64,000 bases of DNA from a virus. This document shows positions 3,937-64,000 of this stretch, piece by piece (the first letter of the stretch is position 1; every line of letters starts with the position of its first letter). The position numbers and the translations under genes were made by a program. The stretch spans positions 5,530 through 69,529 of the IMG/VR virus record IMGVR_UViG_3300042691_032685; one strand, written 5' to 3'. The notes under the pieces were generated by a model that was given only the letters and a program-made list of their open reading frames with translations, made no database searches and had not been told where the DNA came from.

Positions 3937-4128
3937 ATGGACGTACACGTCATTGGCATGGGTGAGTGGATGAATAGTCTCATGAGTCGCATGATGAATG
4001 CGGTGGATGGGGACTGTTTTTATCTGCCCACACCGATGCACCTCCATGCTTTTCTTCTATTAAAGGAGGGCTCATTCCCGGAGCGAGACTTTAAAGTAAC
4101 AGTAAAAGACCCCGTATCTCCCCAATGA
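3937..4128 (+). CDS. Hypothetical protein
   Basis: ORF coupled (ATGA) to primase-helicase. Confidence 0.55.
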   Translation: MDVHVIGMGEWMNSLMSRMMNAVDGDCFYLPTPMHLHAFLLLKEGSFPERDFKVTVKDPVSPQ

Positions 4129-10531: not shown

Positions 10532-10696
10532 ATGTCTAAACTTAACGAATACATCGAAGTTGCTCTTGCTATCCATGCAGCAGCTTCTGCAATCTGTGCA
10601 CTGACTCCTACGCCAAAGGATGATGACATCCTGCGTAAAGCCTATAAGGTACTGGAGTTCCTTGCACTAAATATTGGTCGCGCCAAGCAACGCTGA
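10532..10696 (+). CDS. Small holin-like membrane protein
   Basis: Hydrophobic helix then TPTPKDD; TAGAAT box and GGAG SD upstream; next to endolysin. Confidence 0.55.
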   Translation: MSKLNEYIEVALAIHAAASAICALTPTPKDDDILRKAYKVLEFLALNIGRAKQR

Positions 10697-10859
10697 TCAA
10701 TCAGGTAACGCCTGAAACCAAAAAACAACGCCATCCTGGCTCTCGACCCAATCCCTTGTTTCATATGCGTGTTCCTTTGGTAAGGTCACGCATTTTTTTT
10801 CGTCGCCAATTTGCCAGCACATATTGACGCGGATCCGTGGTTCCTTGTATTTCTTCACG

Positions 10860-52435: not shown

Positions 52436-52645
52436 ATGAACCCTAAGAACCGCATGGAAAAAGCAATTGCATTAACTGCGATTGCTGATGCAGCCGACAA
52501 ATTAAGTTCGGAAGGTGTTGATGATATGGAAGTTAAGAACTTTATTCTTGGTGCACGTAATAAACTTGCGGAAGAACGTCCAGATCCAGAGAATTACGCC
52601 AAGGCAACCGTTGCGGCGTCCCGTTGGGGCAAGCAAAACCTGTAA
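52436..52645 (+). CDS. Hypothetical protein
   Basis: ORF followed by terminator. Confidence 0.6.
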   Translation: MNPKNRMEKAIALTAIADAADKLSSEGVDDMEVKNFILGARNKLAEERPDPENYAKATVAASRWGKQNL

Positions 52646-52675
52646 ATCAAATAACAAAAGTAAGTTTTAAGTACA

Positions 52676-52701
52676 GCCGGGGATAAAACCCCGGCATTTT
52701 T
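52676..52701 (+). terminator. Rho-independent terminator
   Basis: GCCGGGG-ATAAAA-CCCCGGC-ATTTTT. Confidence 0.8.
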
Positions 52702-53115
52702 GTCTGTTTTCTTGGGCAAAACCCTCGACATACCTACACTTTTTACAAAAGACCGGCCCTATATAGGCCAAAAAAGGGAATAGAATTTGCTGACGCTTCT
52801 CCACCACCCCCCGCGAAGGGGAATGTGTATAGAAAAAAAAGAAAGGAGGGGGTACCCCTATTAAATGAGCTGGAATTTGGAGGAGTATAACACGAACTTA
52901 ACTGAATTTGAGACGAAGATCTTATCAATGTCTCTCTAATTGTTATGATTTCGTGACAAACTCCTCCTATAGTCCGGCATATAAGGGGCAAATCTCCCCG
53001 TCACAATAGGCTTCATGTAAGACAGTAGCTTTGATTAGCTGACGACAGTAGCTCAGTTGTATCACAACAACAGCTCTGACGGAACGAAGCAAGTGCCTTT
53101 GTTTCTACATCAATC

Positions 53116-53142
53116 AACGTCAAGCTGGACGTTAAACGTAGC
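53116..53142 (+). ncRNA. H-type pseudoknot motif, copy 1 (divergent)
   Basis: AACGTC/GACGTT stem, loop GCTG pairs with TAGC after the AAACG linker. Confidence 0.5.
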
Positions 53143-53166
53143 AACGTTACATTCCACTTCAACACC

Positions 53167-53346
53167 ATGAACATTTACTGCACCATCAGCACCACAACAG
53201 CTGTCTACTTCTTCGTGGTTAACCACAACATCAACCTTGCACGTATCACTAAGCAGATCCGTAAGGGTCAGAAGGGATACGACTGCAGCACCACGATGTC
53301 AGTGGATCAAGCACGTAAGTTTGCTAAGCAGCTTCAAGCCAGGTGA
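53167..53346 (+). CDS. Early hypothetical protein, 59 aa
   Basis: Manual ORF MNIYCTIS...QLQAR. Confidence 0.6.
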   Translation: MNIYCTISTTTAVYFFVVNHNINLARITKQIRKGQKGYDCSTTMSVDQARKFAKQLQAR

Positions 53347-53405
53347 GTGATAGCTCCCATGCCAGGTGCAATGCCTGGCTCTGGTTATTGCCACAATCAG
53401 TGGCA
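53337..53405 (+). ncRNA. tRNA-elbow-like three-way junction + hairpin, copy 1
   Basis: AGCCAG/CTGGTT; GAG-TGATAG-CTC; GCCAGG-TGCAATG-CCTGGC; TGCCAC/GTGGCA. Confidence 0.6.
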
Positions 53406-53421
53406 TCTACTTCACACCATC

Positions 53422-53628
53422 ATGACACTACTTGAAATTGCTAACAAGGTTATGGCAAACGATGAGCTTGGTTCCGTGCCTGTGTACGGTGCCGATGCTC
53501 AATGGTTTGTTACCCAGTTCCAGGAGGTGATCAGGCTTTATCCCGAAGCGGAAGCTTGGGATGAACACAAGATTTACACAGCTATGTGTTTTCTTTACCT
53601 CATGGATCCTGAAGATTTCGTTAGCTGA
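53422..53628 (+). CDS. Early hypothetical protein
   Basis: ATG after AC-rich leader. Confidence 0.6.
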   Translation: MTLLEIANKVMANDELGSVPVYGADAQWFVTQFQEVIRLYPEAEAWDEHKIYTAMCFLYLMDPEDFVS

Positions 53629-53692
53629 TCCGTTAAAGCGGGAGGCAGGGTGCAATCCCCTGCCCAGTTATTGCCAGGTCATCAGGCCTGGC
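53622..53692 (+). ncRNA. tRNA-elbow-like three-way junction + hairpin, copy 2
   Basis: TAGCTG/CAGTTA; TCCG-TTAAAG-CGGG; GGCAGGG-TGCAATC-CCCTGCC; GCCAGG/CCTGGC. Confidence 0.6.
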
Positions 53693-53715
53693 TTATCAAT
53701 CACACCATACCAATC

Positions 53716-53895
53716 ATGAACGAGTCAGCATTTGCCGCACTGATTGTTTGGGCTTTCTCTCTTGGCACTGTCCCTCTTGTTGCCATGCATTTCATTGACA
53801 AGGCAACAGCAGATCAGTGCAAGAATCATGAGTGGCCCAAGCATCGTGACCAGATCCACCGTGACTGGTGCATCGGCAACGGCTACAAGATCTGA
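53716..53895 (+). CDS. Early small membrane protein
   Basis: TM then QC..HEWP...DWC. Confidence 0.6.
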   Translation: MNESAFAALIVWAFSLGTVPLVAMHFIDKATADQCKNHEWPKHRDQIHRDWCIGNGYKI

Positions 53896-53919
53896 GTTCA
53901 TTCATTACTATTCATTGCC

Positions 53920-54153
53920 ATGATGATCTATCAACCCAAGTACGAGCATCTGCACAGAGTCGTATGGTACGGAGGTGAGTCCACTCAACTGCACTTCGAG
54001 AAGAAGGTTGCAGGTGAATGGAAGGACATCGACGTACGCACACTCGGCTCTGGGCTACCAGATGGAGTCAAGCAGCTCTATGAAGAGATGCGTGACTATC
54101 TCGACTACTGCATCACACAAGACTACGACTCACTTATCGGTACTATCTTCTGA
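53920..54153 (+). CDS. Early hypothetical protein
   Basis: ORF. Confidence 0.6.
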   Translation: MMIYQPKYEHLHRVVWYGGESTQLHFEKKVAGEWKDIDVRTLGSGLPDGVKQLYEEMRDYLDYCITQDYDSLIGTIF

Positions 54154-54156
54154 ATC

Positions 54157-54363
54157 ATGACTAACAATCACATGTTTGATTCTGTTATTGCCATCACACT
54201 TGGCACAGGACTTGGCATGATTCTTTCTGTCATCGGACAGAAGGCACTTAACAAGCATTACATCAACACATGCCACGACAAACCAGGTCATAACCTGGTA
54301 CTAACACGTGGCTTTCTTGGCGATACCTACTTCTGTATCAACAGTCAGTACATCGTCAAGTAA
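54157..54363 (+). CDS. Early small membrane protein
   Basis: N-terminal TM, Cys pair. Confidence 0.6.
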   Translation: MTNNHMFDSVIAITLGTGLGMILSVIGQKALNKHYINTCHDKPGHNLVLTRGFLGDTYFCINSQYIVK

Positions 54364-54364
54364 G

Positions 54365-54440
54365 ACTCCTGCACTTAACCCTTCCATCTAGTACGTATGT
54401 ACTACGACGGTGGGTTTTCTGCAGGACTCAACATCCTGTA
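54365..54440 (+). ncRNA. Structured intergenic element, family C copy 1
   Basis: Long interrupted hairpin then TGCAGGA-CTCAACA-TCCTGTA. Confidence 0.5.
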
Positions 54441-54463
54441 CATCAATTCAACTCAGCTCAACC

Positions 54464-54847
54464 ATGTTCTCTAACACCATCATTGGCAACGTTACTTACA
54501 TGGAAATTGCGACCCATGAGGGTCGTGAATTCCTTGCAATTACAGTTGCAGTCAATGATACCTACGACAGATCCTGTCGGATTAAATTTAACAATTCCAA
54601 TGGATTGTTAACTGCCTATCGCAACGGTACGTTTGTGATAGGACAACAACTTATCCTCAGTCAATATGACGTACGAATCTCTAGCATCCGTACGCATTAC
54701 ACCAAGGACAATCAACTCCTTCCACTCAAGTATCCTGAGATTGCACTGACGAATGTCCGAGCAACCATCGGTTCTTCACCTAAGCCCAAAGCTTTGGTGG
54801 AATCCAGGGCACAAGTGGAACCTACCCTGGAAGAAATTCCTTTCTGA
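54464..54847 (+). CDS. ssb: Single-stranded DNA-binding protein
   Basis: OB-fold pattern TIIGNV...ITVAVN and acidic EEIPF tail. Confidence 0.7.
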   Translation: MFSNTIIGNVTYMEIATHEGREFLAITVAVNDTYDRSCRIKFNNSNGLLTAYRNGTFVIGQQLILSQYDVRISSIRTHYTKDNQLLPLKYPEIALTNVRATIGSSPKPKALVESRAQVEPTLEEIPF

Positions 54848-54850
54848 CAG

Positions 54851-54901
54851 AGCTCTGCTCTAAGGGCCTTCGGGCCTTTACTGCAGGACTCACCTCCTGC
54901 A
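54851..54901 (+). ncRNA. Structured intergenic element, family C copy 2
   Basis: TAAGGGCC-TTCG-GGCCTTTA then TGCAGGA-CTCACC-TCCTGCA. Confidence 0.5.
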
Positions 54902-54919
54902 TCCATCACATACAACACT

Positions 54920-55123
54920 ATGCAACACACAACCAGGCTCGGACGAAACCGTTACATCAGACTTGATTCGTACGGTCAGTCTCTCCAAGCACGACGTACG
55001 AATTTCATCTGCGCTCTCTTCGTCATTGCCATCTCGGTTATGACGGCATGCGCAATGGTTGGCGTCGACCTCACAAACATCAACACTCAAAGCAATGGGA
55101 CTACACATCGCACTGGTCGCTGA
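54920..55123 (+). CDS. Early small membrane protein
   Basis: One TM. Confidence 0.55.
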   Translation: MQHTTRLGRNRYIRLDSYGQSLQARRTNFICALFVIAISVMTACAMVGVDLTNINTQSNGTTHRTGR

Positions 55124-55322
55124 TCTCACTGGGCGTTATGCCCACGTCTGGGGCAACGCACGTACCTTCAAGCAATTCTCTGATCAGCTCGAAGACATCG
55201 GCTGCGAGGTGATCGAGGATCAAAGCATTGAATGGGACGGCTGCACCAGAGATGAGATCGCAGAGGACTGCCTGTCAGTCCATCAACTCCTCAACGACTC
55301 TGACTTCGTACCCCACGACTAG
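55095..55322 (+). CDS. Early acidic protein
   Basis: ORF MGLHIAL. Confidence 0.55.
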   Translation: MGLHIALVADLTGRYAHVWGNARTFKQFSDQLEDIGCEVIEDQSIEWDGCTRDEIAEDCLSVHQLLNDSDFVPHD

Positions 55323-55419
55323 TGTCCCGTAAGACCACGACACTACGGCTGGTACTTGCATCCCTGTACGTACCAGCTATTCTCTATCTGCATCCATCGC
55401 ACTCACTCCAATCAAAGCC

Positions 55420-55917
55420 ATGGAACCCCTCAGCCAACTCGACGTTCAAAGTCCTGACCATGTCTCTGTCATCACTCGGGATGGCAAGATTACTGTCTCA
55501 GTAACCAAGGACGGAGCATCAGTCACACTGGGCTTCCCCATCAAGAACGTCTTCAACACCACTCCCCCCGTCCCCCTTCAACAGCCGGCACCACAGATGA
55601 TGGCTGTTAAGGAGGCTGATTCCAGAGCTAAGTATGAACGAGAAGCAGGCCTTGCCTATCTCGAGAAACTTGCTACCAAGGATCAGAGGGTTACAACTAA
55701 TCAATCACCGAAGAAGCTTGTACCGCATGTCGGTAACTACAAGCTCAACAATGAGTCTGTACGTGAGATTAAACTCATGCTGTCTGATAAAGACATCATG
55801 AATAAGTTCAAGTCACGTCAGCAAGCTTACGAAGAGATTGCACGTGTGTACAACGTAAGTCACCACACAATCTCCAATATTCACAAGGGTACATCCTGGA
55901 CCCACGTGAAGATCTAA
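55420..55917 (+). CDS. Protein with C-terminal HTH
   Basis: KLNNESVREIK...EIARVYNVSHHTISNIHKGTSW. Confidence 0.65.
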   Translation: MEPLSQLDVQSPDHVSVITRDGKITVSVTKDGASVTLGFPIKNVFNTTPPVPLQQPAPQMMAVKEADSRAKYEREAGLAYLEKLATKDQRVTTNQSPKKLVPHVGNYKLNNESVREIKLMLSDKDIMNKFKSRQQAYEEIARVYNVSHHTISNIHKGTSWTHVKI

Positions 55918-55947
55918 CTAACGCAGTAGTACATACTTACCATTCAT

Positions 55948-55975
55948 GGACCTGAGTATGTCCTTAAACTGCTCA
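55948..55975 (+). ncRNA. H-type pseudoknot motif, copy 2
   Basis: GGAC-C-TGAGTA-T-GTCC-TTAAAC-TGCTCA. Confidence 0.7.
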
Positions 55976-55997
55976 ATCCTTTTATCTAATTCAAACC

Positions 55998-56147
55998 ATG
56001 ACTCAACTCGACAACAACTACGAGGCTGACTTGCTTGACGCCATGGCTGATCGTGCAGACGAACTAGAAGAAGCCATGCGTGAAGCAGATCAATCCGAAT
56101 TTCAACTCATCGAACCAATGGAGGACTTTCACGATGACCAAAGCTAA
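55998..56147 (+). CDS. 49-aa highly acidic early protein
   Basis: Manual ORF MTQLDNNYEADLLDAMADRADELEE... Confidence 0.6.
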   Translation: MTQLDNNYEADLLDAMADRADELEEAMREADQSEFQLIEPMEDFHDDQS

Positions 56148-56234
56148 GCACATACAACAAGATGACATCGACATCATTCTGCATGTCCTTGTCATCATCT
56201 CAATTCTCATTGAAATCCTCATAGACGCACTCAA

Positions 56235-56603
56235 ATGTCTTACGTCTCTGAACTCCGCAAGTTCTACCCACGCACTTGGAAAGCAAGACTTGCCATCCAA
56301 AGGTATCAAGTCCACCAAGAGTGGGAGTACCAAGACCCAACAACAATCACCATCCATGAAACGACGCTCAACTACGGCGGTCCAGAGGAAGGTGGCTGGT
56401 GGTACCAAGCAGGACTCCCAGTCCTCACCCACTGCGTCTTCTCCAAGAAGCAAGCAGTCCAAACCTTCATCCAGTACTACGACGAATATGAGATCGCCGA
56501 GCAACCAAGCCTCGGCATCTCAACGACGTACTCAAACTACGAAGTCAACTTCTCCAATGACTTCGCTAAGGTCTACCCTCAATCCAAACCACACTACTGC
56601 TGA
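56235..56603 (+). CDS. Early hypothetical protein
   Basis: YGGPEEGGWWY...P..KPHYC. Confidence 0.65.
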   Translation: MSYVSELRKFYPRTWKARLAIQRYQVHQEWEYQDPTTITIHETTLNYGGPEEGGWWYQAGLPVLTHCVFSKKQAVQTFIQYYDEYEIAEQPSLGISTTYSNYEVNFSNDFAKVYPQSKPHYC

Positions 56604-56872
56604 TGACACTCACAGCCACACCACCCGTTGGACTGAGCATCAACCAACGGAACCTTTACATGTACTTCCTGAACCACAGGAAGAAGTACAAGAACACACC
56701 GTGTTACGTACCAAGGTGTCCCGGTCAAAACTCAAGGGTTGAACAATATCTCAACGCACTGATCAAGCTGGAACAATACGGCTTGATACGTGTAGACAGA
56801 AGCAGTGCCAACTACACAAGTTGGATCATGCTTCCACCAAGACTGGCCCATGACTGTACAATACTTCCGTAG
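56603..56872 (+). CDS. Winged-helix-like early protein
   Basis: LSINQRNLY...LIKLEQYGLIRV. Confidence 0.55.
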   Translation: MTLTATPPVGLSINQRNLYMYFLNHRKKYKNTPCYVPRCPGQNSRVEQYLNALIKLEQYGLIRVDRSSANYTSWIMLPPRLAHDCTILP

Positions 56873-56920
56873 TATATTCGCTATTTGCGAATGGCGAATA
56901 CATGCCAATACATCAGTCAT

Positions 56921-56968
56921 AGCCTGGGCTTTACCGACGTAAGTACGGTATGTAAGTCCCAGGTTTTA
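56921..56968 (+). ncRNA. Structured intergenic element, family B copy 1
   Basis: CTGGGC-[hairpin]-TAAGTCCCAGGTTTTA. Confidence 0.55.
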
Positions 56969-56992
56969 CTGTCACTTCACACCAAACAACTC

Positions 56993-57229
56993 ATGGAACA
57001 AGCCAAGTCCTACCCAACCATTGACTGGAAGAAGAATGAGTACCACCAGCTGAAAGAGGTGGTAAACCTTCTGAAAGCAATCCAAGAACGTGAGAGCAAG
57101 CGTCATGAAATGGATGCACATCTCAACTATCAAACCGCTGATGTCATCACAGAAGTGATTGGCATGCTTGAAGATGAGATCGACTACGATCCAACACCTC
57201 GATACGATCCAAGCCTGGCAGGCATCTAA
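56993..57229 (+). CDS. Early hypothetical protein
   Basis: ATG after AC-rich leader. Confidence 0.6.
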   Translation: MEQAKSYPTIDWKKNEYHQLKEVVNLLKAIQERESKRHEMDAHLNYQTADVITEVIGMLEDEIDYDPTPRYDPSLAGI

Positions 57230-57234
57230 GCAAT

Positions 57235-57273
57235 CCCCCACACCCCCGCAGGGAGTACCAGGGGGATCCTTTT
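57235..57273 (+). terminator. Probable terminator
   Basis: TCCCCC...GGGGGA stem then CCTTTTAT. Confidence 0.45.
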
Positions 57274-57369
57274 ATATACATAAGAACTATCTATGTATAA
57301 CCTTTACTTATCCACCAATCAATCCTTGACATCCCTGATAGACTTCATCAGTTACTCAACTCAACACCA

Positions 57370-57579
57370 ATGACCAAGCCCAACACTCCTCGCATACCAG
57401 ACTCTCTGGATATGCAAAGACTTCAAGCCATGCAATTAGTTGCACGCATGAAGGAAACATCAGATCGTCTCGGAATGGGATTCATCGGGGGCTTTATATC
57501 CCCCGATGGACAGAAGTTTGTTATGACAAACATGGACGACGACGATTCCCAAGCACTCCTACCAGACGATCTCAAATGA
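57370..57579 (+). CDS. Hypothetical protein
   Basis: ORF. Confidence 0.6.
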   Translation: MTKPNTPRIPDSLDMQRLQAMQLVARMKETSDRLGMGFIGGFISPDGQKFVMTNMDDDDSQALLPDDLK

Positions 57580-57664
57580 TTACTTGGCAAGTAACAATCA
57601 TTATCATTGTTAGTATTTTGTGCTTCACAATTACTCTCAATGAAATCATTCACAAGTTACTCAA

Positions 57665-57862
57665 ATGACTAAGAAATCACTCATTAGTTTTGATCGCACC
57701 ATTCATGGTGTGAACATCACCGAACACGGTGTCAAATCACTGACCAAAGCAATCAAGCTTGGTCCATTCCAGCTAACTCTCAACGCCAATCCCAATGGCG
57801 TCAAAGGATCAGTCAGTATCCCTGGCACTGGACTAAGCATTCCAAACATTAAATTAATCTAA
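57665..57862 (+). CDS. DUF4236-like small protein
   Basis: LGPFQLTLN...SVSIPGTGLS. Confidence 0.5.
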   Translation: MTKKSLISFDRTIHGVNITEHGVKSLTKAIKLGPFQLTLNANPNGVKGSVSIPGTGLSIPNIKLI

Positions 57863-57864
57863 AG

Positions 57865-57928
57865 AACTGGGCGTCTGTACTCGTTGTGCAAACAGCACAG
57901 AAGGAGACAGTATAAGTCCCAGGTTTTA
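57865..57928 (+). ncRNA. Structured intergenic element, family B copy 2
   Basis: CTGGGC-[longer hairpin]-TAAGTCCCAGGTTTTA. Confidence 0.55.
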
Positions 57929-57949
57929 TCCACCTACTCAACTCAGCTC

Positions 57950-58135
57950 ATGTCTGCTTACTACGACAACATCAACTTGTTTGATCGAATTAATCTTGCT
58001 GCCTGCGCTATGCGCAGAGCACAAGACAACATACTTGATGAACAACGTTTTCATGGCGAGTTTAAAACTGCTCGCCTATGGAACAAGTACAAGTGTGTCA
58101 TTACCAAGTCTTATTCCTACATCGATGAAGGCTAA
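57950..58135 (+). CDS. Early hypothetical protein
   Basis: ATG after AC-rich leader. Confidence 0.55.
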   Translation: MSAYYDNINLFDRINLAACAMRRAQDNILDEQRFHGEFKTARLWNKYKCVITKSYSYIDEG

Positions 58136-58395
58136 TGACTAACTACTGTTCAGTCCTTGCTATCGAAGACACTCAATTCACCGACACTCATGTCACTGTT
58201 ACAGCAGTTGTTGACGAAATGCGCCTGCTCTATCGGGCGACTTATCTCGATCCTGAAGAGTGGGCTCCAGCACTTTGTACAACAACTATCGAATTGGATC
58301 CAGACGAACCAATCCCTCTTGACGAAGATGGCTTCGCTGAGTATCTTGATCGGCTCGATCCACAGTGGCAACTTGTTGACACCTCAGACGAATGA
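58135..58395 (+). CDS. Acidic early protein
   Basis: ORF, TAATG coupling. Confidence 0.6.
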   Translation: MTNYCSVLAIEDTQFTDTHVTVTAVVDEMRLLYRATYLDPEEWAPALCTTTIELDPDEPIPLDEDGFAEYLDRLDPQWQLVDTSDE

Positions 58396-58522
58396 TTGGA
58401 TTCTCAATTGAATTCAAACGTTGGTACTTTGTACTACGTGGTCCTAAAGGTCGTGTCTATTTAGCTACGGGCTTTACACGTTACAACCCATACGTTAAAG
58501 AAGTTCCAAATCTTTAACATAT

Positions 58523-58550
58523 CGTCCTGGACATGACGTTAAACTGTCCA
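58523..58550 (+). ncRNA. H-type pseudoknot motif, copy 3
   Basis: CGTC-C-TGGACA-T-GACG-TTAAAC-TGTCCA. Confidence 0.7.
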
Positions 58551-58570
58551 TTAACAATATCTATCCACCA

Positions 58571-58840
58571 ATGAAACACTGGCTTTCATTACTCGCACTT
58601 AACTTCCTCATTGCACTTCCAGCACACGCACAGTGGGCTATGACATGTACCAGAGACCCTGGTTCATCTGTCAACCTACGCAACGGTCCATCCAAGAACA
58701 ACACAGTCATTGCCTCCATTCCAGACAGTCAATACCTCAGGGCATTGGACTGGGTATGGGGCGGTGACCAAATGCGTTGGTACCGTGTTGAATACAACGG
58801 TCTTGTTGGCTGGATGCGTTCTGACTATCTCTGCCGATGA
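58571..58840 (+). CDS. Secreted SH3b-domain protein
   Basis: Signal peptide (PAHA), VNLRNGPS...WYRVEYNGLVGWMRSDYL. Confidence 0.85.
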   Translation: MKHWLSLLALNFLIALPAHAQWAMTCTRDPGSSVNLRNGPSKNNTVIASIPDSQYLRALDWVWGGDQMRWYRVEYNGLVGWMRSDYLCR

Positions 58841-59238
58841 CAAAGAAGATTATTCTTGGTATCGCCGCCCTCATTGGTTTCATCATTGCCTGTGCTGGTG
58901 TAGCCACCATGCAAATGGTCATGGGTTCATTGATACCAGACAATAAGCCTGATCCAGATGGCAAACTTGAACCTGATCCTCAGGAGAAATCCAAACAGGA
59001 ATGGGAAGCCAAACTTAAAGAGACTGGTCAAACTACAAGTGCAACCAAGGAAGAACCTGTAAAGCAGCAGGAGCAACAGCAGGAACCTTCACCTACTGTA
59101 GTTGAGCAACCTGCTCCACCGCCACAGCCTGTAGCTCCGCCACCTCCACCTCGCATTCAAAGTACTGGCCCTGGCAACTTTGATGCACCACCTGCATACT
59201 ACCCACCGCCTGCGCCTACGGGTCCAGGCAATATGTAA
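58837..59238 (+). CDS. Membrane-anchored proline-rich protein
   Basis: N-terminal TM, poly-Pro, GPGN repeat. Confidence 0.65.
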   Translation: MTKKIILGIAALIGFIIACAGVATMQMVMGSLIPDNKPDPDGKLEPDPQEKSKQEWEAKLKETGQTTSATKEEPVKQQEQQQEPSPTVVEQPAPPPQPVAPPPPPRIQSTGPGNFDAPPAYYPPPAPTGPGNM

Positions 59239-59241
59239 CTT

Positions 59242-59982
59242 ATGAAACTTCCAATGATTGCATTAATCTCATCAGCCCTTGGCATTGGTTCTGCTATTGC
59301 AGTTAACCAAGTCAATAACATGATTGCACATCACAATGAACAACAAGATCACTTGCGTTCATTGATGTATACACAACCATTAGAACAAGGGCCTGGAGAT
59401 GTAGCTCGTGCAATTCCTGATGGGATGCTTCCATTAGATGCCACACCAACTCCTGGTTCACTGCCAGAGCCTGGCTCTGATCGTCCTTTGATTCAACTCA
59501 AGGATGGTGTACCAGTGCCTGTGATCCCTAAACGTCCATCAGCAAAGCTGCTGCTGATTCGCACCAAAGAAACCGTTAAGCAAACCAAAGATCCAATCTG
59601 GAAACTACAGTTGGTTGCTAACGGTCAAGTCCTGGACAGCATGCCTGCTCTAACAGGACGTGCCTCTAAGCAAACGGCGAATCGCAACATTGCTGGCAAC
59701 AAATCACCATTGCCCATTGGTACATACTCCATCGATAGGTACGGCATTGCCCGTGCACCATTTGATGATCCAGAACTTGGCAAAGGATTCTGGGTACCAG
59801 TGATTCCTTTGTTCAATACCAATCGTTCTGCCCTTGGCTTCCACCAAGATCCAAGCTGGGGCAAACTCAACGGTGAGTCCGGTACCAGTGGATGCATTGG
59901 TCTGGAATCACCAGAGGCCACAGCAAAGCTGCTGGAATGGATCAAACATTACAACATTCAATTGTTATCAGTTGAATCGTAA
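59242..59982 (+). CDS. L,D-transpeptidase (YkuD-like)
   Basis: LPIGTYSI, LGFHQD...GTSGCIGL (His/Cys). Confidence 0.8.
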   Translation: MKLPMIALISSALGIGSAIAVNQVNNMIAHHNEQQDHLRSLMYTQPLEQGPGDVARAIPDGMLPLDATPTPGSLPEPGSDRPLIQLKDGVPVPVIPKRPSAKLLLIRTKETVKQTKDPIWKLQLVANGQVLDSMPALTGRASKQTANRNIAGNKSPLPIGTYSIDRYGIARAPFDDPELGKGFWVPVIPLFNTNRSALGFHQDPSWGKLNGESGTSGCIGLESPEATAKLLEWIKHYNIQLLSVES

Positions 59983-59989
59983 TGACATC

Positions 59990-60018
59990 ACGTCCTGAGC
60001 ATGACGTTAAACTGCTCA
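59990..60018 (+). ncRNA. H-type pseudoknot motif, copy 4
   Basis: ACGTC-C-TGAGCA-T-GACGT-TAAAC-TGCTCA. Confidence 0.7.
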
Positions 60019-60047
60019 ACACTACGAACCAACTACGAACTTGACTC

Positions 60048-61754
60048 ATGCATTTCCAACTTCCCTCCAACCTGCAACAAGAACTCCTGGCTTATGACCC
60101 AAAGCTCAAGGCTTTGGCTAAGCAAGCAGAGAACAAGAAGCCTGCGAAGAAAGCCAAGTATCCCCTTGGCAACATCCCTCATCTCATTCCTGAAGATGTC
60201 GTACGCTCTAGCTACCAACAGACTGCAATTGATCACATCAATGCACAGCTAGCACCAGGGCGTTTCCAATTGTTTACCAAGCTTGTGGATGTAGCAACCC
60301 CACAAGCACGCACTGTACCTATTGCTATCCTCTATCACTTCGAGCAATGCTGGTACGCAGCATGGCTACCTCAACGTGGTAAAGACTATCTCTATGGCTA
60401 TGCCTATGCATTTAAAAACACCTCAGCTGCTGCTAAAGCTGTACCTCACAGCATCTGGAACAGTAAAGATCATTGCACTGAACACAACATTGGTCGTGGT
60501 TCACAGGTCTTTACTTACTCAGCAACAGTAACAAAGCAAGACATCATCAATGGCAAAGACGGTCGCAACTGGCGTGCCATGGGTGTTGCTAGTTACTACC
60601 AGAAAGCTCGTGATATTAACGAGGCAATCAATAAATTTGAATCACAGCTGATGACAACTATTCCTCAATGGAGTGACTGTCGCAGCATCTTTGAACGTCT
60701 ACGTTGCAACAATCTTATTGATGCACTTGAAATGCCTGCATTCTTTAGCAAGCCTATACCTGATAAAACCAAGTATCAACTTACTGTTGATAACTTAATT
60801 GCAACATCTAAGCTGCTTAAGAATGACTATGGTTATTCTTCCTACGGTACATGCTTAACTAAGACCGAAGCAATCATTACCACTCCGTATATCAAGAAGC
60901 AGCTTCAAGCAATGCTTGATCGTTCAACTACTGAGTACAACAACCCAGAGAATACACAACGCAAATCTATTAAATACGGCTTCAAGGAATTTGAGCAGAC
61001 ATGTAACTCTATCGAATTTATTACTCGCATCTGGCCTGACTGCCCCGTCGATCACTACCGCACATACTTCGATGAATTGCGTTGCATCAACCTAAATCAC
61101 TTTAGATATGACGAACGTCTAATTGAATGGTTGCGCCAGCACATGCCTGTTGCATCCTTCTTCAATATGCTACGCAAGTTCAATGAAGTAGAACCTCTTT
61201 ATCCTCGTACTTCATTTAGTGACTATGACTATCATGTCAAATCATACTTTGAGATGAATGACACCTTCTCCATGATCATGCGTGTCCTGGAGAGCGGCAA
61301 GGAACTGGAGGCACCCAAGCGTTGGCGTATGCCTGACTTCCATGACTACGTGCAAGCCGAAGCATGGAAGGTAACCAACCGTAAGGAGGCTCTGCACCAG
61401 GATCTGTTCCCTGCTCCGATCAAAGTCAACATCAGCGGCAGTGATTGGACATTCTTCCAGCCAGTCGACACTCATCAGCTGGCACAGTGGGGACAAGCAG
61501 TACGCAACTGTGTTGGCTCTGCATCCAGGTATGCAGAAGACATCAAGAAACGTAAACACTTCATTGTGCTTTGCATGATTGATGGCAAGCCGACCTTCAC
61601 GATCCAGCTGGATGTATCCATGGGTGTCATGAACGTTGTTCAGATCTCAGGTGTTGCCAACCAACGCCTCACTGATGAGCAACGTGAGCAATACTCACAA
61701 GCATTCAAGCAAGCCTTGCAATCTCGTGAAGCTGAGCTAAGCTCTAACAGCTGA
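60048..61754 (+). CDS. PcfJ-domain protein
   Basis: FHD...QLAQWGQAVRNCVG...FTIQL...QISG..N. Confidence 0.75.
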   Translation: MHFQLPSNLQQELLAYDPKLKALAKQAENKKPAKKAKYPLGNIPHLIPEDVVRSSYQQTAIDHINAQLAPGRFQLFTKLVDVATPQARTVPIAILYHFEQCWYAAWLPQRGKDYLYGYAYAFKNTSAAAKAVPHSIWNSKDHCTEHNIGRGSQVFTYSATVTKQDIINGKDGRNWRAMGVASYYQKARDINEAINKFESQLMTTIPQWSDCRSIFERLRCNNLIDALEMPAFFSKPIPDKTKYQLTVDNLIATSKLLKNDYGYSSYGTCLTKTEAIITTPYIKKQLQAMLDRSTTEYNNPENTQRKSIKYGFKEFEQTCNSIEFITRIWPDCPVDHYRTYFDELRCINLNHFRYDERLIEWLRQHMPVASFFNMLRKFNEVEPLYPRTSFSDYDYHVKSYFEMNDTFSMIMRVLESGKELEAPKRWRMPDFHDYVQAEAWKVTNRKEALHQDLFPAPIKVNISGSDWTFFQPVDTHQLAQWGQAVRNCVGSASRYAEDIKKRKHFIVLCMIDGKPTFTIQLDVSMGVMNVVQISGVANQRLTDEQREQYSQAFKQALQSREAELSSNS

Positions 61755-61802
61755 TGCCACAGCAGGGGCGTCCTATCCTCGTTAAAGGGCGCCTCTTTAA
61801 CC

Positions 61803-62021
61803 ATGAAACACACCGATGAACAGCTACTTGCTATGGCATTAGCTAACCTTGGTGACTACATCCACGACAACTCACCTCAGTACGTATTGATCGAAGACGA
61901 TCCACGCAACGAGGATGACTACGATAGCTGGACTTACGGAATGGAAGTCCTGCCTCATGATCACACTTGGCAGTCAGATGCAATTGACGTAAGTCCAAGT
62001 GATGCAGACGTGACGGAATAG
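61803..62021 (+). CDS. Acidic hypothetical protein
   Basis: ORF; last 18 nt overlap the tRNA. Confidence 0.55.
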   Translation: MKHTDEQLLAMALANLGDYIHDNSPQYVLIEDDPRNEDDYDSWTYGMEVLPHDHTWQSDAIDVSPSDADVTE

Positions 62022-62090
62022 GTATACGTAACGCACTTAAAATGCGTCGGGCATTTGCCCTTGCGGGTTCGACTCCCGCCGTCTGCACCA
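62004..62090 (+). tRNA. trnL: tRNA-Leu(UAA), intronless, CCA encoded
   Basis: GCAGACG/CGTCTGC acceptor, ACGCA-CTTAAAA-TGCGT anticodon arm, long variable arm, GCGGG-TTCGACT-CCCGC. Confidence 0.95.
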
Positions 62091-62110
62091 ACCACACTCA
62101 ATTCAACACC

Positions 62111-62473
62111 ATGCAATTCTTTGCTGCCTTCAAGTCCCTCATCCCTGAGTTTCATGCTTATGCGGATGATGACAACCGCTACAACCTAGGTGCTACCTGG
62201 ACCAGCTCCGATGGTTTGCGTGACTACCACAATCTCGAGATGCGGTACGTCCATAACTCTGAGCGTCTTGCGCTCCAGGGGGAACCGCAACCTGATGGAA
62301 GCTGGCGCTACGTTGAACCCAACGGCGCTGTTCACACCATCTCACCAGAACGTGCTAAGCACTTCATGGAACAGACCAGAGCACACGCCACACTCATGGT
62401 TGGCATGCTCGATAAGCTTCGTGAGTCAGGGGTCCTAGACGAGCCCCTAGACACCACTGCAGAAGCTGCCTAA
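62111..62473 (+). CDS. Hypothetical protein
   Basis: ATG 20 nt after the tRNA CCA. Confidence 0.65.
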   Translation: MQFFAAFKSLIPEFHAYADDDNRYNLGATWTSSDGLRDYHNLEMRYVHNSERLALQGEPQPDGSWRYVEPNGAVHTISPERAKHFMEQTRAHATLMVGMLDKLRESGVLDEPLDTTAEAA

Positions 62474-62491
62474 GATCTACTCGGAATGTTC

Positions 62492-62520
62492 GGCCCCTGC
62501 ATCAGCGGGGGTCTTTTCTT
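62492..62520 (+). terminator. Probable terminator
   Basis: GGCCCCTGC-ATCA-GCGGGGGTC-TTTTCTT. Confidence 0.65.
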
Positions 62521-62521
62521 C

Positions 62522-62845
62522 ATGATCTCAGAATCAATTGTCTCCAAAGATGTAACAGAACTTATCGCTGATTGTATTCCTGACGAACAATGGGAACGCG
62601 TCTGCCAGTTCATGGTAGAGAAGATTGTTGACAACATGCCATCTGATGTCATGACAAAACTCACAGGCAAATGCGATGCATTTGAAACTGCTGAGCAACT
62701 TCTTAACGCGTTCTACAAAGATGCACCAAAGAATGAACTCATCAGAGATTCTTTCAAGTTACTTGGTGCTGAACAAACTGCTTACTATCTTGACTCCCTG
62801 AACCTCAATTCAACTGATGGCCTTTCAGAAGCCAATCCTTCCTGA
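62522..62845 (+). CDS. Hypothetical protein
   Basis: ORF. Confidence 0.6.
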
Positions 62846-63167
62846 TTGTCCTGAATGCAAGCAACCTGGGTTACGAGTCATTGAATCCAGGAAGACAGCT
62901 GATGCCACACGTCGTCGCAAAAAATGCGAGTGCTGTGGTATCCGCTTTACAACTTATGAAGTATCTGCTGATTTTTACAACGAAGCACAGCAGAACTTGA
63001 TCTTGGTCTCTAAGCTTTATGCGTTGCTAAGCGGTAACGCTTTAGCATCTCAACCAGCGATCATCAAATGCAAAGACTGCTCTCATAACCAGGGCGATGC
63101 TTGTGCATTTGAATTTCCTGAATACGACACCACTGATTCCTACGACTGCAATCACTATGACAACTAA
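62817..63167 (+). CDS. NrdR-like zinc-ribbon protein
   Basis: CPEC...VIESR...[17 protein letters not shown]; second Cys cluster instead of ATP cone. Confidence 0.75.
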
Positions 63168-63456
63168 GCGTCAATTCACTTATGCCGTTGGTGATCGCGT
63201 AGCGGAACGTCCCAAGGCTCATGGCATCTTTGCTATTCGTAACGAAGTTAAAGAACGTATTGCTCAATACCGCAGCCAGCGGTACGGCAATGTTCTGAAC
63301 ATCGTTGAAAAACCAAATAGCCTTGGCCGCAAACAAAAGTTCTTAGTGATCCAATGGGATCACCTGGTATCACCAACAGAACACGCTACGATGCGTATCT
63401 GTCCAGCATCAGAACTCCAGCGTCTGATGAAAGAAGTCATTGTTCCAGGGGAATGA
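63157..63456 (+). CDS. Hypothetical protein (SH3/KOW-like)
   Basis: YAVGDRV...G.V...VIQWD. Confidence 0.55.
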
Positions 63457-63457
63457 G

Positions 63458-63664
63458 ATGGATGAACGAACTGAGATGATCATCCGAGCTGTTGCAACTT
63501 CTATTGCAATCCTTGGATTCATGATTCTTACCTACGCAGTTGTTGAAAACAATGCTGAACCCGTAGAAAAGTTTAAGTTTGTAGACAGGTACAAGAATTG
63601 CGACGTGGTCAGGTACACTGACCCGAGCAATGAATGGCATTACCTACTGCACTGTGATCAATGA
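63458..63664 (+). CDS. Small membrane protein
   Basis: TM then [12 protein letters not shown]. Confidence 0.55.
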
Positions 63665-64000
63665 ACACTGAACTTATTTGGGTCACACCCAATGCAGAAG
63701 AGATGATTGTCAAGATGGCTCGGGTCTCTGCACCGAGTAATCAAGACAATATGGATACAGCACCACGCCTGCTTAAGTATCTGATTAAGCACAAGCACTG
63801 GTCACCATTTGAAATGGGAAACATGTGCGTTGAGATTGAAACCACGCGTGCAATCTCACCACAGATCTTGCGTCATCGTTCATTTTCATTTCAGGAATTT
63901 AGTCAGCGCTACGCAGACATCAGTGATATCGGCAGCATCACACTGCCGCACCTACGTAGCCAAGACTACAAGAACAGGCAGAACTCCAACGACGATCTCA
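63661..64000 (+). CDS. thyX: Flavin-dependent thymidylate synthase, runs off the window end
   Basis: [27 protein letters not shown]. Confidence 0.95.

Follow-up and report, generated by a model that had tools for sequence, protein, structure and literature searches.

Conserved compact RNA folds ahead of gene blocks in a relative of Synechococcus phage S-EIVl: candidate 5′ caps that include a coremin-like pseudoknot

Introduction

The RNase III sites of T7 early mRNA and the 5′ stabilizing hairpins of bacteria are structures that define or stabilize individual messages, and RNase III substrates extend over roughly two helical turns. The mRNA of T4 gene 32 carries a pseudoknot, and exoribonuclease-resistant RNAs (xrRNAs) of the flavivirus type are laid out as a three-way junction with pseudoknots. 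A flaviviral xrRNA was reported to stop bacterial RNase J1 in vitro (MacFadden et al. 2018), so a fold of such kind is able to act on a bacterial enzyme. Coremin and its Watson–Crick variant (xrRNA_WCC) have been described from plant, fungal, and invertebrate RNA viruses (Dilweg et al. 2019, 2023). In these accounts, the model of coremin is an H-type pseudoknot in which L1 is a single nucleotide and adenines lie in the groove of stem 1. Its stalling of Xrn1 requires the C-G closing pair of hp1, pairs 2 and 3, and A16, A17, C18, and U19, and the Watson–Crick variant stalls Xrn1 as well. Coremin is also described as stalling ribosomes, including scanning ones, and as promoting frameshifting (Dilweg et al. 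2019, 2023). In T4-type phages, PeSL cassettes have been described as a promoter plus a terminator (Arbiol et al. 2010; Comeau et al. 2014).

Here, we analyzed a 64,000-nt stretch of viral DNA (the window) from a 69.5-kb genome related to Synechococcus phage S-EIVl. Its + strand holds 13 compact folds between 53.1 and 62.1 kb. One fold among them closely resembles a knot with which plant RNA viruses halt an RNA-degrading enzyme, a likeness suggesting that phages may protect their mRNAs by comparable means.

Results

All 13 elements listed by a first-pass annotation of the window were recovered in place or within a few bases. They sort into families A to F, with a tRNA-Leu apart, and only the tRNA matches Rfam 15; no Rfam family was found for the others. 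Most begin 0–10 nt past the upstream stop codon, and the genes within a block abut or overlap. The claim that 11 of the 13 end 16–29 nt before an ATG agrees with the measured gaps, which are, in order, 16, 16, 23, 23, 18, 41, 22, 29, 26, 20, 29, 6, and 20 nt. Across 25 related loci, the folds are conserved and strand-specific, with compensatory changes in their support. Copies had been said to conserve pairing rather than sequence; this holds for the stems, which covary, but in loops and junctions the sequence itself is strongly conserved. When nested-fold energies were compared with those of shuffles, z ranged from −2.2 to −5.4 in about 10 of the 13 listed elements and was weaker at 57865 (−1.4), 53116 (−1.1), 59990 (−0.80), and 58523 (−0.55), a measure that is unfair to the three pseudoknot copies; at one of these, 55948, the nested fold chooses a different structure (z −4.1). 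Both the "early" timing of the genes and a tie to host shut-off are assumed.

Family A is a 28-nt H-type pseudoknot whose unpaired letters are strongly conserved. In the copy CGTCCTGAGCATGACGTTAAACTGCTCA at 59991..60018 (+ strand, 29 nt to ATG 60048 of a PcfJ-like gene), nt 1–4 pair with 13–16 as stem 1, nt 6–11 pair with 23–28 as stem 2, and nt 17–22 form the linker. The other two copies lie at 55948..55975 (+ strand, stem 1 GGAC/GUCC, 22 nt to ATG 55998) and 58523..58550 (+ strand, 20 nt to ATG 58571). In a two-hairpin subtype at 53118..53150 (+ strand, 16 nt to ATG 53167, nested z −1.1), a 4-bp stem 1 with a 6-nt loop leads into the GACG+UUAAAC segment of other A copies, followed by a 5-bp hairpin; nine related loci keep this subtype ahead of the first early gene, in nine distinct copies. 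The structural descriptor of family A found three perfect + strand copies in the 69.5-kb genome; 200 Markov simulations averaged 0.3 on both strands together. Pairing holds in 95.8% of cells among 53 distinct copies from the window and the 25 related loci, and 7 of 10 pairs show compensatory change, a level reached by none of 500 shuffles; pairing falls to 21–48% when the partners are slid. In an independent sample of 98 distinct copies, from IMG/VR contigs chosen solely by the fixed letters, 274 of 294 cells are paired at the three free stem-2 pairs (shuffles: mean 210, maximum 224), through 53 distinct stem-2 combinations. In 112 IMG/VR loci whose orientation was set by one A copy, 171 A-like matches are sense and none antisense, as are 46 and none, respectively, for family D.

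The remaining families are built differently. A partial family B element at 53361..53405 (+ strand, z −2.3, 16 nt to ATG 53422) comprises two hairpins joined by the linker GUUAUUGCC, the first of them with the loop GUGCAAU. The complete form at 53622..53692 (+ strand, z −3.7, 23 nt to ATG 53716) forms a three-way junction, with the upstream TGA stop lying within its outer stem; it holds a small CCGU/GCGG hairpin and a covarying 7-bp hairpin with the loop GUGCAAUC, and one more hairpin follows. Of the 19 pairs of complete family B, 11 show compensatory change in 12 sequences, and the element is also present in the T7-like phage S-CBP2. Family C at 54364..54440 (+ strand, z −5.4, 23 nt to ATG 54464) has an "up" segment right behind the stop codon, an inner covarying hairpin, and then a "mid" segment able to pair with either "up" or "down"; compensatory changes occur in both alternative helices. 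Its short form at 54849..54901 (+ strand, z −3.75, 18 nt to ATG 54920) has three hairpins, the last being the mid:down helix. Family E, at 55320..55378 (+ strand, z −3.7, 41 nt to ATG 55420), comprises two hairpins from the TAG stop on and is conserved in five sequences with little covariation. In family D at 56923..56963 (+ strand, z −4.1, 29 nt to ATG 56993), the outer stem is 6 bp long and carries a bulged U, the internal loop is asymmetric and conserved, and the inner hairpin is variable and covaries; this hairpin is long in the copy at 57867..57923 (+ strand, z −1.4, 26 nt to ATG 57950). Family F, at 61764..61796 (+ strand, z −2.2, 6 nt to ATG 61803), is a hairpin with a conserved loop and a 9-bp covarying stem, five of whose nine pairs show compensatory change in 12 sequences. 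Finally, tRNA-Leu(UAA) at 62004..62090 (+ strand, 20 nt to ATG 62111) occupies the place of the other modules, ahead of the same kind of leader.

A tRNA is an RNase P substrate, and its presence in this slot would suit processing sites or small ribozymes, at which RNase III, E, or P or self-cleavage segments the transcript as in T7 and confers no protection. The same can be said of one bacterial contig in which an A-like hairpin with an A-rich linker lies within a RAGATH-1 hammerhead. However, no ribozyme family matched the window even at E values up to 10, and the helices are short (4 + 6 bp in A; 6 bp plus a variable hairpin in D), well under RNase III substrates. We regard this as the least probable of the explanations considered here.

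The modules had been proposed to be interchangeable and to make genes portable as cassettes, and related loci bear out both ideas. Different families, or a tRNA, precede the same orthologous gene: the orthologue of gene 55998 is headed by D in 14 loci and by A in 6, the PcfJ-like gene by A in 24 and D in 1, and the orthologue of gene 62111 by the tRNA in 21 records and D in 1 (L010). A three-gene cassette at 58553..59990 (+ strand; Pfam SH3_3 and YkuD), encoding an SH3 protein, a 133-aa protein, and a YkuD-type L,D-transpeptidase, is flanked by two A copies, with 58523..58550 at its left border, and is gained or lost exactly at them. It is missing in L005, L010, L011, and L014, where a single A copy stands at the junction; in L005, two alignments overlap precisely across that copy.

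Such exact borders, the precedent of PeSL as described for T4-type phages, and a strand bias that is also compatible with transcription signals could point to DNA- or transcription-level signals: promoters, RNAs with a pause or antitermination effect on RNA polymerase, or chiefly sites of recombination (PeSL-like). However, compensatory changes in two interleaved helices are unexpected for a duplex DNA site, and recombination between repeats requires no function besides the repeat. Few promoter-like or terminator-like sites occur within the block. No sigma-70-like hexamers adjoin the elements; promoter-like sites number 10 in 11.7 kb versus 17.1 expected, and only that at 56850–56878 is near an element. 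Most elements are without U tracts, as the first-pass annotation had noted: on the + strand, just 62492 and 52676 are terminator-like, with 53361 borderline. We consider signals of this kind highly unlikely.

A sigma-70-like site at 52922..52949 (+ strand), the only one with a TG-extended −10 ahead of the gene block, sits in the 521-nt gap preceding the first gene and is a candidate early promoter for one long transcript. The hairpin and U tract at 62492..62513 (+ strand, z −2.8) lie 8 nt before ATG 62522. A G+C-rich hairpin followed by a U tract at 57233..57267 (+ strand, z −2.4 for the whole gap), absent from the earlier list, is probably an internal terminator. Behind it, at about 57326, a conserved TTGACA lies ahead of gene 57370, and S-EIVl has the same layout.

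The elements are not private to this region: A precedes replication genes (SSB and others) in relatives and in unrelated phages. Its position 19–20 nt before the SSB gene in 16 of the 16 related loci holding that gene speaks for operators bound by an RNA-binding protein (phage SSB or a host factor), each family marking a co-regulated gene set. In one variant, after the example of T4 gene 32, SSB would nucleate at the knot and spread along the unstructured leader; in the account of PMC10690425, gene 32 autoregulation is laid out as a pseudoknot followed by an unstructured leader. The strong conservation of A's unpaired letters would also fit. However, headings by different families on the same orthologous gene are contrary to family-specific regulons, and the unpaired letters of A are the same across unrelated gene sets and several host phyla, which suggests either an intrinsic fold or a universal partner. 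Operators appear distinctly unlikely.

Behind the folds, an unstructured, A/C-rich leader without an SD had been described, and composition (G-poor), SD counts, and folding energies all agree. A GGAG/GAGG/AGGA core at −18..−4 occurs in 0 of 30 + strand genes versus 12 of 31 − strand ORFs. Across the lineage, the leaders of 183 distinct element-plus-leader units contain 35% C, 32% A, 25% T, and 8% G, and an SD core is present in five of the units. The mean folding energy of 132 distinct leader segments, each extended by 12 nt, is −1.55 kcal/mol, versus −5.56 in random windows of the same length and strand (Mann–Whitney p 8e-23). Spacing to the ATG is tight, at 19–35 nt in 54 of 54 distinct A copies and 18–29 nt in 16 of 16 tRNAs.

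Tight spacing, the lack of SD cores, and leaders far less structured than the RNA around them are arguments for translation modules, in which the fold acts on the ribosome and not on a nuclease and sets the yield of each block. The leader might be kept single-stranded, the 30S docked or positioned for SD-independent initiation, or post-termination sliding stopped. The stalling of scanning ribosomes and the frameshifting described for coremin would agree with this, as would the mutually exclusive helices of family C, placed so that the "up" segment would lie under a terminating ribosome. Against it, the fold has no part complementary to the leader or start codon, and the same slot can be taken by a tRNA. 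Phages of Firmicutes, Paracoccus, and Staphylococcus carry A before SD-bearing genes at variable distance, and in Nostoc phage NMeng1 and Mycobacterium phage Labelle A also precedes tRNA genes. On balance, a translational role of this kind seems fairly unlikely.

The family A knot is present in more than 112 IMG/VR contigs. Among named phages, a 32-nt A query matched 139 records, with hosts including Staphylococcus, Bacillus, Streptococcus, Lactobacillus, Moorella, Mycobacterium, Arthrobacter, Nostoc, Microcystis, Synechococcus, and Paracoccus; some of these copies were checked. Beyond cyanophages, A lies 40–70 nt ahead of genes with SD sites, so the tight spacing and SD-less context are not general. 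The exact A pattern occurs in 23 bacterial contigs, mostly of Bacillota and none titled as a proteobacterium; 5,426 E. coli genomes gave no match. The host groups named here have RNase J, which E. coli is not known to possess.

Discussion

We propose, with a rough probability of 45%, that the folds are 5′ caps that block 5′–3′ decay ahead of a ribosome landing pad. The + strand block would probably be read as one or a few long transcripts, in which each block opens with a composite unit of a conserved compact fold, an unstructured, G-poor, SD-less leader of about 16–30 nt, and an ATG. An endonuclease would cut upstream, and a 5′–3′ decay activity, possibly RNase J or RNase E tracking from the monophosphate end, would then halt at the fold. 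The downstream unit would survive with a defined 5′ end and an intact landing pad. In favor of this reading are the covarying structure of A and its likeness to coremin, the strand bias, the spacing and open leaders, the exchange of folds in one slot with cassette borders at A copies, the host range of A, and the scarcity of promoter-like and terminator-like sites within the block. Family A would be the phage counterpart of the coremin or Watson–Crick-coremin exoribonuclease-resistant pseudoknot, while families B to F and the tRNA would fill the same slot through other folds; it is position and interchange that suggest a function shared by families B to F with A. As short modules that recur, the folds would also act as crossover points, with cassettes lost, gained, or re-headed.

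Several points count against caps. A terminating ribosome would have to melt most elements in every round. The spacing and SD-less context of A differ outside cyanophages, and A departs from coremin in features described below. In addition, D456-type Vibrio phages (27 Vibrio records matched, of which one was checked) carry a good A copy antisense to annotated genes, in a host that is not known to have RNase J. The first-pass interpretation, that interchangeable 5′ modules block exonucleases, direct processing, or recruit ribosomes, is partly supported.

Like T7 RNase III sites and 5′ stabilizing hairpins, the elements are structured and lie between cistrons or at mRNA 5′ ends. Their helices are shorter than those of T7 RNase III sites, however, their loop and junction sequences are conserved, and one family matches a known exonuclease-resistant fold, not an RNase III substrate. 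With the T4 gene 32 mRNA pseudoknot, as presented in PMC10690425, A has in common a small H-type pseudoknot and an unstructured leader upstream of a start codon; the likeness is one of layout, and A heads many unrelated genes in phages of many hosts. As in the published descriptions of PeSL, short conserved stem-loop motifs border small, variable early genes and delimit indels or swaps, but the elements have no adjoining promoter hexamers, mostly lack U tracts, include pseudoknots and junctions, and belong to several interchangeable families. Family B resembles flavivirus-type xrRNAs, as far as these are described, in its three-way junction, in a hairpin loop that could pair just 3′ of the outer stem, and in a further hairpin after the junction, without sequence likeness or an Rfam match; the loop-to-tail pairing is invariant, so covariation speaks neither for nor against it.

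The closest likeness is that of family A to coremin (xrRNA_C), as the latter is described by Dilweg et al. (2019, 2023). Both have a 4-bp stem 1 with a C-G closing pair, a single pyrimidine after the stem, a GACG+UUAAACU stretch, a site in untranslated or intergenic RNA just past an ORF, and a proposed H-type pseudoknot between the hairpin loop and bases behind AAAC. Coremin reads GUCCGAAGACGUUAAACUAC; family A shares its GUCC, has a longer loop after it, and continues with GACGUUAAACU. Differences are also evident. The A loop has 8 nt with U or C as its second letter, breaking the YGAD/YGNNAD rule of coremin; position 20 is G in most A copies, where coremin needs A; and a second hairpin right after the linker, strictly needed by coremin for Xrn1 resistance, is absent from the three pseudoknot copies of the window. 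The carrier of A is dsDNA-phage mRNA in cells without Xrn1, with many copies per genome, and its nuclease resistance is putative. Coremin stalls ribosomes too, so the likeness favors a general mechanical roadblock and not a nuclease block specifically. The A columns that correspond to the coremin requirements for Xrn1 stalling are nevertheless invariant or at least 90% conserved, and A has exactly the topology modelled for coremin, with a stem 2 of 6 bp that are all Watson–Crick pairs, compared with three in xrRNA_WCC and non-canonical pairing in coremin. As predicted from its sequence, the second stem of A is a Watson–Crick version of the pseudoknot proposed for coremin, and it is through this likeness, with stem 1 and linker in common with an Xrn1-resistant RNA, that A may be assigned an exonuclease-blocking role.

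The gene block and its relatives

The window spans bases 5530–69529 of one 69.5-kb contig. Its large ORFs encode phage proteins, among them a terminase, a major head protein, a tail fibre, an endolysin, a primase and an exonuclease. The 754-aa structural protein shares 75% identity with its counterpart in Synechococcus phage S-EIVl and the 568-aa PcfJ-like protein (60048–61754) shares 43%. Gene order around the PcfJ-like gene is identical in S-EIVl, and no near-identical phage DNA is on record. The likeness to S-EIVl, together with gene content, is our basis for inferring the host and the "early" timing. Every plausible gene of the window from 53167 onwards lies on the + strand, which is G-poor (GC skew about −0.12 to −0.19). 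These genes are mostly short, and most were without a protein family in a family search of the small ORFs. In that search the empty result for protein 16 does not count, because its frame was read from 57951 instead of 57950, and proteins 27 and 28 were read from in-frame positions other than their start codons. A 220-aa low-complexity frame at 56134–56742 overlaps two better-looking ORFs (56235–56603 and 56603–56872); either reading may be the expressed one, so the 87-nt "gap" at 56148–56234 may be coding. The ORF ahead of tRNA-Leu, at 61803–62021, runs 18 bases into the 5' end of the tRNA gene.

A protein-guided scan gathered 24 related IMG/VR loci, with 49–87% identity in the PcfJ-like protein; the S-EIVl locus is the 25th. 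The intergenic folds recur in the 25 related loci, at matching places and at other places.

Placement of the folds and their leaders

The first-pass annotation listed 13 compact RNA folds on the + strand between 53.1 and 62.1 kb, and each was found in the sequence or its predicted folds. Counted from the last paired base, the gaps to the following ATG are, in element order, 16, 16, 23, 23, 18, 41, 22, 29, 26, 20, 29, 6, and 20 nt, so that 11 of the 13 stand 16–29 nt before an ATG, the number claimed. Genes without an element in front abut or overlap the preceding gene, and "blocks, each capped by a fold" is therefore a fair description.

The leaders between fold and ATG also have the character ascribed to them. 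A Shine–Dalgarno (SD) core at −18 to −4 was found for 0 of 30 + strand genes, versus 12 of 31 late-strand (− strand) ORFs, the latter a rough count that takes the first start codon of each ORF. One phage thus appears to contain two translation-start regimes, on the + strand at 53167–64000 and on the − strand at 645–52314. Upstream of + strand genes, G makes up 10% of bases; upstream of − strand ORFs, A is 42% and G is 20%. Leader composition over 183 distinct units of the lineage is A/C-rich (C 35%, A 32%, T 25%, G 8%), and 132 distinct leaders have a mean folding energy of −1.55 kcal/mol versus −5.56 in random same-strand windows, as expected of unstructured RNA.

Little in the region resembles transcription signals. 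Most elements lack terminator-like U tails, as had been stated: only 62492, 52676, and the borderline 53361 qualify on the + strand. The elements in general do not have the G+C-rich hairpin and U tract of an intrinsic terminator, and the U run that follows the family D hairpin in the window is not kept in relatives. Promoter-like sites are rarer than in shuffled sequence, and none adjoins an element except the one at 56850–56878. PeSL elements, which are promoter and stem-loop cassettes, differ in that they join early promoter hexamers to a stem-loop. We rejected a promoter or terminator reading because such sites and U-tract hairpins are few on the + strand, and we consider transcription or DNA-level signals in general very improbable.

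Two local features were seen along the way. Ahead of gene 57370, within 57233–57369, a hairpin rich in G+C and trailed by a U tract comes before a conserved TTGACA (about 57326). S-EIVl has the same arrangement (L001, about 10680–10800), which is possibly an internal terminator and promoter that divide the block into two units of transcription. Just upstream of a D element, at about 56873–56902, lies an inverted repeat (ATTCGC...GCGAAT type) that is kept in related loci L005, L007, L010, and L011, and the promoter-like site at 56850–56878 overlaps it.

Family A has the pairing pattern of a pseudoknot

A check against Rfam had been proposed. In a covariance-model search against Rfam 15, only the tRNA passes: a tRNA-Leu(UAA) at 62004–62090 (58 bits), whose cloverleaf and anticodon were found by two programs. 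At E values up to 10 over 52600–62600, the elements gave only one chance-level microRNA/sRNA match (61763), and family A copies of three named phages were also without an Rfam match.

The family A copy at 59991–60018 on the + strand, CGTCCTGAGCATGACGTTAAACTGCTCA, pairs bases 1–4 with 13–16 (stem 1) and 6–11 with 23–28 (stem 2), with the linker UUAAAC. Judged by covariation, the predicted pairing is that of an H-type pseudoknot with a one-base first loop (L1). Over 53 distinct copies, pairing holds in 95.8% of cells, with compensatory change at 7 of the 10 pairs; 0 of 500 shuffles match this, and slid partners pair in only 21–48% of cells. Stem 2 contributes six pairs, five of them with compensatory change, and L1 is a single invariant C. 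A loose match at 4069–4108, with three mismatches and unpaired stems, was excluded from this alignment (A1). Run over the genome, a fold descriptor gave three perfect + strand copies versus 0.3 expected on both strands together. A subtype at 53118–53150 (+ strand) shares stem 1 and the linker and has a 6-nt loop and a 5-bp hairpin directly 3' of the linker; it is kept ahead of the first early gene in nine related loci.

Two other roles were considered and rejected. A frameshift signal is contradicted by the lack of a slippery heptamer in the six bases before stem 1 (53 copies, by eye) and by the position of the elements after stop codons. A pistol- or hammerhead-like ribozyme does not serve as a general answer: the window has no ribozyme match, and there is none at the bacterial pattern matches. 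The one RAGATH-1 hammerhead in bacterial contigs with the family A pattern is located apart from the pattern match. Plain processing sites or ribozymes are, to us, the least probable account of the elements. An A-like hairpin and A-rich linker form the 5' part of that RAGATH-1 hammerhead, at 4534–4620 of one bacterial contig (L157).

Spread of family A

Family A was searched with a pattern in which stem 1, the linker, and four flanking letters are the only fixed parts; this pattern occurs in at least 112 IMG/VR stretches and in 23 bacterial contigs. Three stem-2 pairs are left free by the pattern, and in the 98 distinct IMG/VR copies among the matches listed, 274 of 294 such cells are paired. 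Shuffles of those copies gave a mean of 210 and a maximum of 224 paired cells, and 53 different stem-2 combinations were observed. Most of the bacterial contigs are from Bacillota (Enterococcus, Ruminococcus, Finegoldia, Selenomonadaceae, Peptostreptococcaceae, and others); Saccharibacteria, Anaerolineales, Bradymonadales, and Bacteroidetes are each the label of a single contig. Covariation in stem 2 is seen in these copies too. Within 7–8 kb there are five A-like copies in a Selenomonadaceae contig (L145) and four in a Bacilli contig (L151), which suggests that Firmicutes phages or prophages likewise use the knot repeatedly in one region.

Among named phages, 139 records were matched by a 32-nt family A query. 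The copy in Staphylococcus phage SA13 lies between head-morphogenesis and scaffold genes, those in Nostoc phage NMeng1 and Mycobacterium phage Labelle each lie ahead of a tRNA gene, and that in the T4-like Synechococcus phage S-H35 is followed by the same CA-rich leader. Copies in Paracoccus phage ParMal1 and Bacillus phage Edson were also checked. The query found no match in 5,426 E. coli genomes, a database twelve times larger in which only matches of at least about 37 bits could appear. The host groups with clear family A copies have RNase J, which enterobacteria are not known to have. A published paper deals with RNase J in Synechocystis.

When the 112 IMG/VR loci were oriented by one A copy, the matches listed included 171 A-like copies in sense and 0 in antisense orientation. 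For the same loci and with the same restriction, family D gave 46 and 0, and family B gave 17 and 1; the counts for family F (30 sense, 26 antisense) come from a loose pattern and are probably false. Vibrio phages of the D456 type carry a good family A copy antisense to annotated genes and may be a counter-example.

The other families

Family B is a three-way junction in which the upstream stop codon forms part of the outer stem, and 11 of its 19 pairs have compensatory changes over 12 sequences. A candidate pairing of its loop with the 3' tail shows no informative variation; one copy keeps it via a wobble and one breaks it. A complete B element occurs in the early region of the T7-like cyanopodovirus S-CBP2 (L164, 1282–1340), where an unannotated ATG follows; CA-rich leaders lie at other sites in that region. 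Family D (47 sequences) is a hairpin: its outer stem is near-invariant, its asymmetric internal loop is conserved, and its inner hairpin covaries freely. Nine loose matches were left out of its alignment (A3), and a 34-nt D query against named phages outside the lineage gave only chance-level matches.

In family C (54364–54440 and 54849–54901; alignment A4), one 7-nt segment can pair with either an upstream or a downstream partner. The two helices are mutually exclusive, and both carry compensatory changes. The upstream partner begins 1–3 nt past the stop codon, and the fold might therefore be flipped by a ribosome terminating there. In family F, a 9-bp stem covaries and the loop is conserved; family E is conserved, with little covariation among only five sequences. 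The elements are conserved, strand-specific structures of RNA type, with covariation in interleaved helices.

Exchange of folds and cassettes

To follow the proposal that the folds are interchangeable modules, the first ORF after each element was clustered, and the proposal held up. Ahead of the gene 55998 orthologue, D stands in 14 loci and A in 6; ahead of the gene 56993 orthologue, D stands in 19 and A in 1. For the PcfJ-like gene the counts are A in 24 and D in 1, and the gene 62111 orthologue follows the tRNA in 21 loci and D in 1. B and C are mixed in two further ORF groups, with some of the C entries doubtful; the C pattern is loose, and C entries in the tRNA and PcfJ clusters are probably false. 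Family A also precedes an SSB gene in 16 loci, which prompted the idea of a gene 32-like operator. We regard protein operators, this one included, as an improbable explanation of the folds.

Genes are also gained or lost at the elements, in keeping with the annotation's idea of portable cassettes. The block at 58553–59990 (an SH3 protein, a 133-aa protein, and a YkuD transpeptidase) is flanked by two A copies and is missing in related loci L005, L010, L011, and L014; the alignments to either side of it in L005 overlap by exactly the single A copy. Placement before unstructured, SD-less leaders is fixed, families are exchanged at one gene, and cassette borders lie at repeats.

A possible barrier to 5'–3' decay

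Our main reading, to which we give a probability of roughly 0.45, is that the elements are folds that stop 5'–3' decay. The gene block would be transcribed as long RNAs, the folds would stop degradation by RNase J or by end-dependent RNase E, and the other families would do the same job as family A. Folds of such a kind can act on a bacterial enzyme, since a flaviviral exoribonuclease-resistant RNA (xrRNA) stops bacterial RNase J1 in vitro (MacFadden et al. 2018). Family A matches a known exonuclease-resistant fold in detail: its conserved decamer, searched in full texts, pointed to coremin, a motif of plant RNA viruses (GUCCGAAGACGUUAAACUAC) that stalls the 5'–3' exonuclease Xrn1 (Dilweg et al. 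2019, 2023). The main rival is a role at the ribosome, which is plausible because coremin can also stall ribosomes; we judge it unlikely, though it is the strongest of the alternatives.

Should the knot block 5'–3' decay in bacteria, prokaryotic viruses would have their first natural xrRNA class. The knot would also tie RNase J to phage gene expression and offer a 28-nt part for stabilising bacterial mRNAs. The arrangement suggests a route by which a phage could run a presumed long operon without SD sites, the translation unit being a fold plus a G-poor landing pad. Such units would be swappable, which would explain cassette turnover in the variable early region.

We hold more tentatively the wider view that exoribonuclease-resistant RNAs extend beyond eukaryotic RNA viruses and that the coremin-type knot is a pan-viral device against bacterial 5'–3' decay by RNase J. 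Were it true, dsDNA phages of cyanobacteria, Firmicutes, Actinobacteria, and others would set the knot ahead of chosen genes. S-EIVl-like cyanophages would use it as one of several interchangeable "cap" folds, and caps with SD-less leaders would punctuate whole operons into protected, portable translation units.

We found no literature joining "coremin motif" with "phage" and nothing relevant on xrRNA with bacteriophage or RNase J. The text of the 2023 Sci Rep coremin paper contains neither "bacteri" nor "phage", and that of the 2023 RNA Biol paper neither "bacteri" nor "prokaryot". PMC10690425 describes 8,495 unnamed candidate RNAs catalogued from IMG/VR; some of the present folds may be among them, without the present interpretation.

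Comparison with known exonuclease-resistant RNAs

Flavivirus-type xrRNAs combine a three-way junction with a loop-to-3'-tail pseudoknot; in family B, covariation backs the junction. Family A is compared more closely with coremin (xrRNA_C), which, according to Dilweg et al., needs a first hairpin (hp1) of 3–4 bp closed by a C-G pair, a loop of the YGAD type, positions A16–A20 of the spacer, and a second hairpin (hp2). In hp1, pairs 2 and 3 must pair and swapping is allowed. All 53 family A copies have C-G as the closing pair and G-C as pair 3; U-A forms pair 2 in 46 of them and A-U in the other 7, and the outer pair of stem 1 takes all four Watson-Crick types (C-G, G-C, U-A, A-U). In the coremin spacer, A16, A17, C18, and U19 are described as essential and U13 and U14 as tolerant. 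The three A's of family A are invariant, and the C and next U are at least 90% conserved; in the Labelle copy AA replaces UU, the same change that coremin tolerates.

Other positions differ. The reported A20U change abolishes stalling in coremin, and A20C in the BNYVV context, which creates a Watson-Crick pair, kept resistance; family A has a consensus G there, paired in stem 2, with A in a minority of copies. The coremin loop consensus is given as YGAD (4 nt) or YGNNAD (6 nt), and one natural octaloop worked in the BNYVV context. The family A loop is 8 nt long, with U or C instead of G as its second letter, an invariant C as its first (Y), and A, then mostly U, as its last two (AD). For coremin and its Watson-Crick variant (xrRNA_WCC), an hp2 of at least 4 bp directly after the spacer is reported to be required for Xrn1 resistance. 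Family A is followed by unstructured leaders, with the exception of 53118–53150 and its 5-bp hairpin. In Enterococcus contigs and Staphylococcus phage SA13 (among L138, L159, and L161), a second conserved hairpin and then UAAAA lie 15–20 nt past the knot.

Because of these three departures, in loop consensus, A20, and downstream hairpin, family A is filed as a putative coremin variant, not a member. According to Dilweg et al., coremin has no solved structure. They hypothesise an H-type pseudoknot, with pairing of the loop to the spacer CUAC and adenines in the groove of stem 1, and a Watson-Crick version that they selected stalls Xrn1. Family A resembles that version in its Watson-Crick stem 2, formed by the loop with bases past the A-rich linker, and in its 1-nt L1. 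Covariation in the phage copies directly supports an H-type knot that has stem 1 and the linker in common with coremin, and under the wider view hundreds of natural phage variants would supply covariation proof of the pseudoknot so far only hypothesised for coremin. Family A and coremin share GUCC, GACGUUAAACU, and topology; the family A loop is longer, and its stem 2 is a 6-bp Watson-Crick helix.
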